DNA of 7,205 nucleotides from Pseudomonas phage WX_Y: the sequence record OQ354711.1. The stretch is one strand, 5' to 3'. This document shows, in pieces, positions 4,477 through 7,205 of the stretch. Position 1 is the stretch's first letter. Every line of letters starts with the position of its first letter. The notes under the pieces are model-generated. The model had not been told where the DNA came from. It worked only from the letters and a program-made list of their open reading frames with translations, and searched no databases. Made by a program: the position numbers and the translations under genes.

Positions 4477-5664
4477 ATGATTTTCGGTCATGAGGGCCTT
4501 CCTGGCTCTGGCAAGAGCCTTGAGGCCATGGTTCATGTGGTCAACTCGCTGCTCAGCGGTCGCACTGTGGTGACCAACATCAGCGGCATTGACCATCGGG
4601 CAATCTCTGAGCATCTGGCCATCCCGTTGCCCACGGTCCAGCAGCTGCTGATCTGCCTGGAAGCGCCGGATGAACTCGACGAGGATGCGAAGGTGGCGTG
4701 GGTCAAGGGCCAGTTCTTCGCGAACCGGCATCATGACTGCCTTTGGATATGGGACGAGATCAACCAGTTCTGGCCGCCTGACCGGCAGCCGCTGTCTGCG
4801 GATTGGGCCAAGTTCGTGACCGAGCACCGGCACCTGGGCATCGACATTCTGATCATGGGCCAGGACCTGACCGAGCTGCATCAGACGTGGCGCAAGCGGC
4901 TCCAGCGCTATACGCGATTCACCAAGCTGGACATGATGGGCAAGGACGACCAGTACCACTGGGCCAGTTACTCCAGCGCCGGACGGCTCCGGTTCAAGCA
5001 GACGGCCTCGGGGAAGAAACCGTACAACAAGGACTTCTTCGGGTTCTACAAGAGCCACGATGACGGGACGGCCAACGTTGCGAACTACCAGGACAAGCGT
5101 TTTTCTGTGTTCCAGGCGAAGCACAAGGCGTTGGGCTGGGGGCTGTCGATCGCGATTGCGGTGTCGGTTGCGTATCTCTGGAACTTCTTCCAGCCGGGCG
5201 ACCAGGACCTGAAGGCCGCTGTTCAGGATGCGCCCAAGACTGAGCGCGCGGTGACGCCGGCAGTCTCGGCGCCGGTTCGGGCTCAAGTCGTCGTAGCCTC
5301 GGCGCCGGCCAAGGCGGAAGAGCCGAAGGAACCGCCGCCCATCGACTACCTGGACAAGCTCGCGCAGCAGTACGATCTGCGGCTGTCGGCGATACTTGAT
5401 CGCAAGAGTCCCCAACCCGAACAGGCCGCGTTCGAGTTCGTCATGGACGTCCTGGACCCTGGGTATCGCGTGAAGGAACGGTTCCGCCGGATCGACGTGG
5501 TGTCGCTGGGCTGGACGGTCGAGCGCAAGGATTACGGGGTGTTGATCAGCAAGGGCGGCAAGTCGTACGTTGTCAGGCCCTGGCCGCTGGACAACTTCGG
5601 GAAAGCGCCGGAGCGTCAGTTGAGCCAGCTTGGGCAGATGCCTGTGGCTACAGGCAAGCCCTGA
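4477..5664 (+). CDS. gI: Zot-family assembly ATPase (gI-like)
   Basis: 395 aa. Walker A GLPGSGKS sits at residues 6-13 and Walker B-like LWIWDEIN is present. A central TM segment (LGWGLSIAIAVSVAYLWNFF) is followed by a periplasmic C-domain. SD AAGGGGAGGGG lies upstream of ATG 4477. Confidence 0.9.
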   Translation: MIFGHEGLPGSGKSLEAMVHVVNSLLSGRTVVTNISGIDHRAISEHLAIPLPTVQQLLICLEAPDELDEDAKVAWVKGQFFANRHHDCLWIWDEINQFWPPDRQPLSADWAKFVTEHRHLGIDILIMGQDLTELHQTWRKRLQRYTRFTKLDMMGKDDQYHWASYSSAGRLRFKQTASGKKPYNKDFFGFYKSHDDGTANVANYQDKRFSVFQAKHKALGWGLSIAIAVSVAYLWNFFQPGDQDLKAAVQDAPKTERAVTPAVSAPVRAQVVVASAPAKAEEPKEPPPIDYLDKLAQQYDLRLSAILDRKSPQPEQAAFEFVMDVLDPGYRVKERFRRIDVVSLGWTVERKDYGVLISKGGKSYVVRPWPLDNFGKAPERQLSQLGQMPVATGKP

Positions 5665-5689
5665 TCACCCACACGCTCTAACCTATGGC

Positions 5690-5800
5690 TTCGCATAATG
5701 TGGACGGGATTACGTTAGGCCAGGCCCGACCGAAGGGAGAATGCGCAGACCGGAAAATTGCAGTCCGGTCAAGCATTTACACGTAATCCCCATTATGCGA
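5690..5800. other. Candidate Xer-recombination attachment site: a dif-like XerC-arm motif present as an imperfect inverted pair (forked-hairpin attP candidate)
   Basis: TTCGCATAATGT (5690-5701) matches the XerC arm plus the start of the central region of gammaproteobacterial/Xanthomonas dif (recalled as ATTTCGCATAA-TGTATA-TTATGTTAAAT). 5781-5800 (ACGTAATCCCCATTATGCGA) is the reverse complement of 5691-5715 minus the 5-nt TGGAC. No canonical XerD arm is present. Confidence 0.45.
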
Positions 5801-5809
5801 TGCGACCCG

Positions 5810-6364
5810 TTATTTGCGGCTTTGTCCGAAGACAACAGGCTCTTCGGTCAAGGGTCTGGCCCTGAAGCTCGACAGTGCCTTTGTTCTCTCTGCGCTCTTT
5901 TGGGCGACTACAATGGCGTCCTTTTTTGCCATTGGCTCGGATCCTGTTGGCTTCCAGGTCCTTGAGTTCTTTATCTTGAATTCAACCACCCATTTTTCGT
6001 GATCCGTCACGGCATTGCTGTTTTCCGTGACGCGTGACGCTAATTCTTTCTTCAGTTCGCGGCATTGGCGGATCAAGTTGTCACGCTGCATGAGCAGGTC
6101 TTGTACCTGATCGTGCAGTTCGTCTCGACGTATCTCTGCGCGTGAGCATCTTTCCCCTAGCTCCAGGGCTATCGACTTCAGCTCGTCGTAGCTGACGTCT
6201 TGTTTTTTCTGTGACGGCTGATCGTTACGCTTTTTCTTGTTCGCCCGGTAGCGCCGCGCCCGCTCTGCGTCGGACAGGGCTTTGCCTGTGGCTGGCCGAC
6301 CGCGCCCGCGCTTCGGCTGCTCCAGGGGGAGGGCTTGGGTTTGCTTGTCTGCTGGGTCGATCAT
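5810..6364 (-). CDS. Putative phage transcriptional regulator/repressor with an AT-hook-like motif, a basic region and a coiled coil
   Basis: 184-aa ORF with SD GGAGA 7 nt upstream of its ATG. The N-terminus carries KRGRGRPATGKALSDAERARRYRANKKKR (AT-hook-like GRP plus basic region), followed by heptad-like LHDQVQDLLMQRDNLIRQCRELKKELA. It is divergent from a repeat-rich operator region. I recognise no specific family. Confidence 0.5.
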   Translation of the reverse strand: MIDPADKQTQALPLEQPKRGRGRPATGKALSDAERARRYRANKKKRNDQPSQKKQDVSYDELKSIALELGERCSRAEIRRDELHDQVQDLLMQRDNLIRQCRELKKELASRVTENSNAVTDHEKWVVEFKIKNSRTWKPTGSEPMAKKDAIVVAQKSAERTKALSSFRARPLTEEPVVFGQSRK

Positions 6365-6420: not shown

Positions 6421-6510
6421 ATACACGAATTAGCGTGACGAATCACGATAAATAGCGACCGTTCGTCGGTATTTAATGTGACGAATCGAGGCTCGTCACG
6501 ATAAATAGCG
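6404..6510. repeat. Iteron/operator array: three copies of (C)GTCACGATAAATA(G) phased at 31 and 53 bp, each with a GTGACG-type half-site
   Basis: TCACGATAAATA occurs at 6412-6423, 6443-6454 and 6496-6507, and copies 2 and 3 share CACGATAAATAGCG. GTGACGCGTCAC is at 6404-6415. GTGACGAATCAC is at 6435-6446. GTGACGA-N8-TCGTCAC is at 6478-6499. Confidence 0.65.
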
Positions 6511-7179: not shown

Positions 7180-7205
7180 GGTGCTAGGACAGCCTGGGGT
7201 GGTCG

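Follow-up and report, generated by a model that had tools for sequence, protein, structure and literature searches.

How does a filamentous phage that carries no integrase gene enter the chromosome of its host? Pseudomonas phage WX_Y raises this question, since its sequence record (OQ354711.1; 7,205 nt, analysed here over its whole length and hereafter called the window) is the complete genome of a small integrase-less inovirus of Pseudomonas aeruginosa. Its close DNA matches are all P. aeruginosa filamentous phages (97-1, 42-1, 17897, 36-2, 5a-DAzarov and NEU2023). A Pfam scan of the 10 open reading frames (ORFs) gave matches to Rep, RstB, capsid, DUF2523 and Zot, with no integrase or recombinase gene among them, and PHROGs added none. 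A preliminary description of the region that follows the assembly gene gI had pointed to a dif-like XerC-binding arm repeated in inverted orientation, and had suggested a phage attachment site (attP) folding like that of the Vibrio cholerae phage CTXphi. We report here that positions 5688-5803 are likely a CTX-type single-stranded DNA (ssDNA) hairpin attP, by which this integrase-less inovirus of P. aeruginosa would exploit the XerC and XerD proteins of its host.

The prophage lies at dif in tandem copies and rebuilds dif at its right end

In the P. aeruginosa chromosome CP056094, we observed two tandem prophage copies at ~3.6 Mb of 7.0 Mb, each of them identical to the window at 7205/7205 positions once the window is rotated at 5690. 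The dif site of strain PAO1 is GATTCGCATAATGTATATTATGTTAAAT (Carnoy & Roten 2009, PMC2731167). The right junction of the prophage reads ...CCTATGGCTTCGCATAA/TGTATATTATGTTAAAT, i.e. GCTTCGCATAA TGTATA TTATGTTAAAT, and shares 27/28 positions with PAO1 dif, indicating that a dif with a functional appearance is rebuilt at this end. The left junction reads ...GGCTTCGCATAATGT/GGACGGG; both the left end and the copy-to-copy junction continue as ...GGCTTCGCATAATGT GGACGGGATTACGT... and carry the dif-like site of the plus strand, called site 1 below. These junction sequences place the crossover within TTCGCATAATGT, that is, in the XerC arm and the first central bases of site 1. In agreement with this position, the crossover repeat (11-12 nt) stands at both ends of the prophage sequences deposited in GenBank for four relatives.

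Cleavage by XerC is predicted between 5698 and 5699, where TG(T) is homologous to the central TGTATA of dif; the established cutting position of XerC falls inside the crossover interval. Homology to the central region of dif is present only on the XerC side (TGT/GGACGGGA in the phage vs TGT/ATA in dif), and in Pf 97-1, whose terminal repeat is 11 nt long, just TG is common with dif. None of the prophage boundaries and junctions examined had its crossover at the second dif-like site, site 2 on the minus strand, despite the 6-nt spacing of that site.

The match of TTCGCATAATGT to dif had been noticed in the preliminary description and stands, but the dif in question is that of P. aeruginosa (PAO1) and not that of Xanthomonas, to which it had been ascribed; Xanthomonas is ruled out by the phage matches listed above and by the occurrence of the prophage in P. 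aeruginosa chromosomes. Two further expectations of that description were borne out: the host dif has the XerC arm and TGT in common with the phage site, and the prophages are found at dif, regenerated at their right end, and not in a tRNA gene.

The window prophage has GC, and not the GA of PAO1, ahead of TTCGCATAA at its left junction, where it adjoins a gene with HTH_23/HTH_32 domains, and the left junction of a relative (loci L078/L112) bears the host-specific GA of the dif XerC arm at the same place. An older Xer-exploiting integrative mobile element (IMEX) or an insertion sequence was considered as the source of the left flank and rejected, the 4-kb left flank being 97-99% conserved in strains with different prophages. 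Since only a few bases before the XerC arm vary while these 4 kb are conserved, the left flank is host DNA with a local polymorphism.

Two side observations concern the same place. P. aeruginosa strains are polymorphic directly left of the dif XerC arm, with ccatgGA, tcctgGC or ttcttGC ahead of TTCGCATAA (locus L005, 3990-4010; loci L046, L070, L078 and L112), and this polymorphism may be the scar of past integration and loss. In the assembly GCA_950100875 (locus L004, 3867-3965), a run of N separates two copies of the hairpin region, one partial and the other full, as would be seen if the assembler had collapsed a tandem array of prophages.

Two inverted dif-like sites pair into a bulged hairpin

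The region contains two dif-like sites in inverted orientation (Table 1). Site 2 matches dif at 19/28 positions without a gap and is the sole 28-mer of the window within 9 mismatches of dif. The preliminary description had seen two half-sites here, the best candidate for a XerD arm requiring an 11-nt centre; the complete dif-like site 2, on the minus strand with 6-nt spacing, had been missed. When the plus strand of 5686-5805 was folded as DNA, we obtained exactly the structure that had been described, with every coordinate, both pairings, the TGGAC bulge, the 65-nt loop and the inner hairpin at 5748-5770, at a free energy of -30.5 kcal/mol. Shuffled sequences reached -15.7 +/- 2.4 kcal/mol (z = -6.1), none of 200 being as stable, and both arm pairs were also returned by an independent repeat finder. 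The bulge is 5 nt long because the two central regions measure 11 and 6 nt.

Beyond the two helices formed by the sites, the minimum free energy (MFE) fold contains a small hairpin within a three-way junction, and a short GC hairpin stands at this same place in relatives and in CTXphi. The 3' strand of the inner hairpin (helix 3) includes ATTTA, the complement of TAAAT, the distal part of the XerD-arm consensus. No Rfam match at E <= 1 was found in 5500-6000 and no tRNA in the window, and both a known RNA family and a tRNA integration target were accordingly discarded as candidates.

A stable hairpin between the convergent gI and 184-aa genes could also act as a bidirectional transcription terminator. 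However, a T-run is present on neither side, the terminator scan was empty in 5686-5805, as the preliminary description would have it for an attachment site, the stem is long and interrupted with a branched loop of 65 nt, and it is made of dif arms whose sequences are conserved between genera. We thus regard a terminator as highly improbable.

Compensatory changes couple the central regions of the two sites

A pattern scan of viral contigs (16 specified bases) gave many chance matches, which were filtered by folding energy and site parsing, so that the counts given here describe a sample and not a census. At least 35 distinct site 1/site 2 variants were recovered, belonging to several sequence families. 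Among the matches listed, the central region of site 1 is 9-13 nt long in 35 variants, whereas that of site 2 is 6 nt in 34/35 of them and 7 nt in one; the bulge varies from 3 to 7 nt and, without exception, sits on the coding strand's 5' arm. In these same matches, the XerD-proximal central bases are equal within a phage and different between phages (GGGA, GACG, GGCG, CAGG, GTGT and others).

We aligned 27 sequences of diverged relatives (alignment A1). In this alignment, 94.8% of the cells are paired, vs ~35% when the partners are slid by 1-3 columns, and RNAalifold independently arrives at these three helices. Helix 1 hardly varies, with 7/10 pairs unchanged in the 27 sequences and a XerC arm that never varies, which indicates a constraint on the sequence beyond pairing alone. 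In helix 2, 99.6% of the cells are paired and 5/10 pairs have changes on both sides. Helix 3 shows compensatory changes at 9/14 pairs, its ATTTA and GA(A/G)T being invariant. The fold is thus kept through compensatory changes in diverged relatives. An attP active only as a duplex gives no reason for covariation between the central regions, and this covariation is the strongest evidence of selection on the folded form. In every lineage the stems are made of XerC and XerD arm sequence, and the fold is therefore explained most economically by Xer recognition.

This evidence bears on a second explanation, in which the phage would have a double-stranded attP of the VGJphi type, with XerCD or XerC alone recombining the duplex site 1 with dif, and the hairpin would be irrelevant. 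The junctions merely place the crossover in the interval given above, and VGJ elements too are integrase-less inoviruses that integrate at dif by a XerC-first exchange, leave dif-like junctions and form arrays (PMC4246890). Nevertheless, they have a single duplex dif-like attP with normal spacing (6-8 bp at the crossover), while the crossover site of the window has its XerD-like arm 11 nt, and not 6, from the XerC arm and a partner site that covaries with it. The attP1 of CTXphi, with 12 nt, was reported to be unsuitable as a duplex (PMC4246890). Moreover, site 2 has the canonical 6-nt spacing and was never the crossover site at the boundaries and junctions examined, and the compensatory changes that couple both central regions are left without reason by a mechanism using the duplex only. 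A VGJ-type attP therefore appears improbable. Among the phages named for comparison in the preliminary description, Cf1c, XacF1 and phiLf of Xanthomonas are IMEX of this VGJphi type.

The loop of the inner hairpin (5754-5763; A1 columns 63-82) carries a motif, GGGA.AAT.GCGCAGCCCC, which is conserved across the Pseudomonas clades and reads CCGGAAAATTGCAG in the window. This conservation suggests a sequence-specific role beyond pairing.

Selection on a folded strand could also act on a packaging signal or a complementary-strand origin, with the dif-like XerC arm merely overlapping it. In the Ff phages, both of these are (+) ssDNA hairpins located after the last morphogenesis gene, and the hairpin of the window stands directly after gI/zot. 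Helix 3, with its compensatory pairs and its loop motif, is strongly conserved, and in integrative Xanthomonas phages, packaging is signalled by short GC-rich hairpins (bioRxiv 10.1101/2023.12.30.573655). However, such a role leaves unexplained why the outer stems derive from XerC and XerD arms in every lineage, with invariant CGCATAA and TTAYG, and why the attP of CTXphi has the same topology; in addition, the window has another strong candidate hairpin at 2576-2621. It is thus quite unlikely that packaging or priming is the main reason for the fold. It is plausible as an added function of helix 3, compatible with the attP and not replacing it.

Finally, we looked at the polarity of the element. 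In 42/42 hairpin occurrences in phage or viral loci among the matches listed, and in 17/17 genome loci of other genera, the strand that carries the long-centre site is the one that encodes zot or rep. This polarity fits the need to have the top strand cleaved by XerC on the packaged (+) strand.

The geometry is that of the CTXphi attP

The attP(+) of CTXphi in V. cholerae is reportedly a forked hairpin (Val et al. 2005; Das et al. 2010; reviews PMC4246890 and PMC5357621). We folded the CTXphi record NC_015209 with the same tool as the window and obtained an outer stem of 14 bp, a bulge of 5 nt on the 5' side, a further stem and a three-way junction bearing two hairpins, i.e. the topology of the window, so that the likeness proposed in the preliminary description holds. 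On the plus strand, attP1 reads GTGCGTATTA / TGTGGCGCGGCA (12 nt) / TTATGTTGAGG; on the minus strand, attP2 reads ATGCGTATTA / TACGCCA (7 nt) / TTATGTTACGG; and the right junction is GTGCGTATTA TGTATG TTATGTTAAAT. These sequences agree with the central regions of 12 bp and 5-7 bp and the 90-nt spacer given in the literature (PMC4246890; PMC5357621).

The two phages thus share an inverted pair of dif-like sites with a long centre (12 nt in CTXphi, 11 in the window) and a short one (7 and 6), a 5-nt bulge on the 5' side, a crossover at the long-centre site of the plus strand, a TGT homology on the XerC side of the dif centre, a dif rebuilt at the right end, tandem prophages, a RstB homologue, and an attP placed between the last plus-strand gene and a gene in reverse orientation (rstR in CTXphi). 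They differ in their host, in the XerC arm (GTGCGTATTA in CTXphi vs TTCGCATAA in the window), in the Rep family and in the toxin genes, which the window lacks. The element spans ~116 nt in the window vs ~150 nt in CTXphi, and its XerD arm, a nearly full-length duplex in CTXphi, is continuous over only 6-8 bp in the window, where the junction interrupts it. The mechanism of CTXphi has been studied experimentally, whereas the element of the window was analysed here from its sequence.

The preliminary description considered such a geometry remarkable outside Vibrio, and in this it went too far. An inverted pair of XerC/XerD sites has already been described in YpfPhi of Yersinia pestis and proposed to work as in CTXphi, the prophage being in tandem at dif with an intact dif at its 3' end (PMC4266046), so that the geometry is not unprecedented. 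YpfPhi and CUS-1 of Escherichia coli K1 have been classed as CTXphi-related IMEXs (PMC3442271). Like the window phage, both are integrase-less inoviruses of non-Vibrio hosts found at dif, in tandem arrays of 2-4 copies; unlike it, they have enterobacterial hosts and genomes of ~8.7 kb, and the likeness was drawn from their published descriptions. The viral-contig scan also returned an E. coli-like variant with GGTGCGCATAA arms (locus L125).

The direct relatives of the window phage are the small integrase-less P. aeruginosa prophages Pf 36-2, 42-1, 97-1 and 17897 (groups 4-7), which have the same hairpin and whose terminal repeats are the crossover sequence; the window and Pf 97-1 are 94% identical across half the genome. 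In the paper on these relatives (Evseev et al. 2023, PMC10675462), their sites are called "intergenic regions" and "host-encoded integrases" are suggested; neither dif and Xer sites nor a hairpin are mentioned. The record PQ758391 (Pseudomonas phage 5a-DAzarov) is filed as Caudoviricetes, yet it is a 7.3-kb inovirus relative with the same hairpin.

A model for integration and its limits

We propose that the phage integrates as follows. On the (+) single strand, either packaged or produced by rolling-circle replication, site 1 would pair with the inverted site 2, giving a duplex XerC arm (helix 1), a centre with a 5-nt bulge, a duplex proximal XerD arm (helix 2) and a cap formed by the three-way junction. 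XerC and XerD would bind both this forked hairpin and the chromosomal dif; XerC would then cut the top strands after TTCGCATAA and exchange them, the TG(T) common to the dif centre TGTATA permitting ligation. Given that the remaining central region is not homologous to dif, we propose that no exchange by XerD follows, and that the pseudo-Holliday junction is turned into a double-stranded prophage by replication. The left junction, with its 11-nt spacer, should be inactive as a duplex, while the right junction would be a working dif, so that integration is expected to be both irreversible and repeatable. Repeated integration would lead to tandem arrays, from which new (+) strands could be made by rolling-circle replication.

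Several points weigh against this model. The main doubt is whether ssDNA truly is the substrate: the junctions would look identical if XerC used the double-stranded site 1, and by themselves they do not show an ssDNA substrate. The minus strand folds at -28.8 kcal/mol, almost as well as the plus strand. Of the XerD arm, the continuous helix covers just 6 bp, or 8 bp if a 1-nt bulge is allowed, fewer than in CTXphi, which makes the binding of XerD uncertain. As the 3' XerC arm pairs with the invariant 5' arm, its own invariance is not independent evidence, and since shared ancestry or synteny could also explain the polarity of the element, this polarity is supporting evidence only. Lastly, similarity between the Rep protein (G2P type) and RstA of CTXphi was undetectable, so the window phage is only a mosaic relative of CTXphi.

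Regarding the short XerD-arm helix, another idea, which we hold only tentatively and consider rather doubtful, is that the folded attP of Pseudomonas phages is a structural variant in which the XerD arm is assembled across the three-way junction instead of forming a continuous duplex. In the Pseudomonas clades, helix 2 is followed by TA on both strands, separated on the bottom strand by one variable base (A1 column 99), and helix 3 begins with the invariant GA(A/G)T facing the invariant ATTTA. Helix 2 and TA would give TTACGTTA, to which the 5' strand of helix 3 would add AAT after a branch of 22 nt. A coaxial stack of helices 2 and 3 would thus read TTACGTTA^AAT, i.e. 10/11 of the dif XerD arm TTATGTTAAAT, and this composite arm would face a continuous bottom strand with one extrahelical base. 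The XerD arm is a continuous duplex in other lineages (e.g. loci L033, L038, L081 and L117) and in CTXphi. If the variant does exist, the substrate recognised by XerD would be a branched one, and integration could be coupled through helix 3 to packaging or to the priming of the complementary strand.

Gene content of the window

The plus strand encodes a replication protein of the G2P type, a RstB-family protein, an inovirus capsid protein, a DUF2523 (g6-like) protein and Zot/gI, and two small genes lie on the opposite strand. The RstB-family protein shares 29% identity with RstB of CTXphi (E = 6e-7); in CTXphi, RstB is a ssDNA-binding protein required for integration. Many assemblies encode the Zot protein of the window, for which 159 blocks of the collection are indexed. 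The minus-strand gene adjoining the attP gave no Pfam match at E <= 0.01 and no DUF3653/XafT match. TLC-type IMEX have XafT, their Xer-activation factor, which we take to be DUF3653, beside an attP without XerD arm; the neighbour of the attP in the window has no DUF3653, and this type was discarded.

Three other structured regions were noticed in the window. A GC hairpin with a T-run, resembling a terminator, lies downstream of the capsid gene (2540-2568). The hairpin at 2576-2621, nearly perfect over 22 bp with a 2-nt loop, may serve as a packaging signal or as an origin of the complementary strand. In the region that separates the minus-strand genes, 6430-6504 holds an inverted repeat of 20 nt (80% complementary, 35 nt apart), which may be an operator or belong to the origin.

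Table 1. Coordinates of the attachment-site features and of the genes discussed, numbered along the window
Feature	Position	Strand	Basis	Details
Site 1 (attP1-like, crossover site)	5688-5720	+	sequence	XerC arm GCTTCGCATAA 5688-5698; 11-nt centre TGTGGACGGGA 5699-5709; XerD-like arm TTACGTTAGGC 5710-5720
Site 2 (attP2-like)	5776-5803	-	ungapped dif match	XerC arm GCATCGCATAA 5803-5793; 6-nt centre TGGGGA 5792-5787; XerD-like arm TTACGTGTAAA 5786-5776
Crossover interval TTCGCATAATGT	5690-5701	+	left and right junctions; ends of relatives' prophage records in GenBank	direct repeat at prophage ends
Helix 1	5691-5700 with 5791-5800	+	fold	TCGCATAATG with CATTATGCGA; duplex XerC arm and first 2 central nt (TG)
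Bulge	5701-5705	+	fold	TGGAC, 5 nt, 5' strand
Helix 2	5706-5715 with 5781-5790	+		GGGATTACGT with ACGTAATCCC; last 4 central nt and first 6 nt of XerD-like arms
Small hairpin	5718-5726	+	MFE fold	GGC-CAG-GCC, in three-way junction
Helix 3 (inner hairpin)	5740-5777	+		AATGC 5740-5744 with GCATT 5773-5777; GACCGGA 5748-5754 with TCCGGTC 5764-5770, N9 between
RstB-family gene, 98 aa	1719-2015	+	Pfam CTX_RstB, 31.6 bits (cut-off 26.2); PHROG 929, E = 1.6e-31	
Zot/gI assembly gene	4477-5664	+	Pfam Zot, E = 1.9e-25	final gene of plus-strand block; stops 24 nt before site 1
184-aa gene, function unknown (PHROG 10506)	5810-6364	-	ORF list	directly after site 2

The hairpin design occurs in many genera

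A stricter pattern scan was run on one genome per species and followed by site parsing. The same architecture was found in Pseudomonas putida, P. syringae, P. lundensis, P. caricapapayae, P. tremae and further Pseudomonas, in Moraxella, Psychrobacter, Xenorhabdus, Moritella, Cellvibrio and Motiliproteus, and in OM182, Alteromonadaceae, Pseudoalteromonadaceae and Desulfocapsa-like metagenome-assembled genomes (MAGs). Homologues of rep or zot adjoin many of these genome hairpins. This distribution hints, although we consider it rather doubtful, that Xer integration through an ssDNA hairpin may be a way of life widespread among the inoviruses of Pseudomonadales, Moraxellaceae and Alteromonadales, and not a peculiarity of Vibrio and Yersinia.

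In genomes of Moraxella, P. syringae, OM182, Pseudomonas and Psychrobacter, hairpins of the phage type are also repeated at distances of 0.3-2.9 kb, or are found 1-1.7 kb away from a perfect dif (locus L174 at 2775 and 3102; L166, ~1.6 kb apart; L153 at 2450 and 5304; L155, ~1.65 kb from a perfect dif; L180). They look like remnants or satellite-sized elements in IMEX arrays.

Matches in Lentisphaeria were excluded from the phage hairpins, as they belong to another element, present in many copies, whose two sites each have a central region of 6 nt. In the Lentisphaeria MAG RGIG4167, at least 18 contigs carry this unit of ~127 nt with two inverted dif-like sites (e.g. TTCGCATAA TATTGA TTATG), which folds weakly, at -15 to -20 kcal/mol (loci L131, L135, L141-L143, L145, L146, L148, L150, L152, L156, L162, L164, L167, L168, L172, L178 and L181).

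Significance for P. aeruginosa filamentous phages

The class of mechanism proposed here is known, and what is new is its assignment to P. aeruginosa as a host and to this phage lineage; we found no published description of this attP in P. aeruginosa, including in literature searches for later work. A survey of the filamentous phages of P. aeruginosa (Pf) presents integration by an integrase, into tRNA genes or direct repeats, as a Pf hallmark, vs the XerCD/dif route of other filamentous phages (PMC7549136). Pf phages are clinically relevant, and our analysis indicates that a second, common class of P. aeruginosa inoviruses would use the XerCD/dif system of the host, with an attP geometry that matches the CTXphi hairpin.

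The borders of these prophages can now be drawn exactly. Tandem arrays are to be expected at the replication terminus, a situation with which assemblers and prophage finders cope poorly, and lysogeny is predicted to be stable and non-excising. These phages may offer a system at hand for experiments on Xer recombination of ssDNA in hosts other than Vibrio, and the wide occurrence of this attP design would give a comparative footing to a mechanism so far studied experimentally mainly in one phage.

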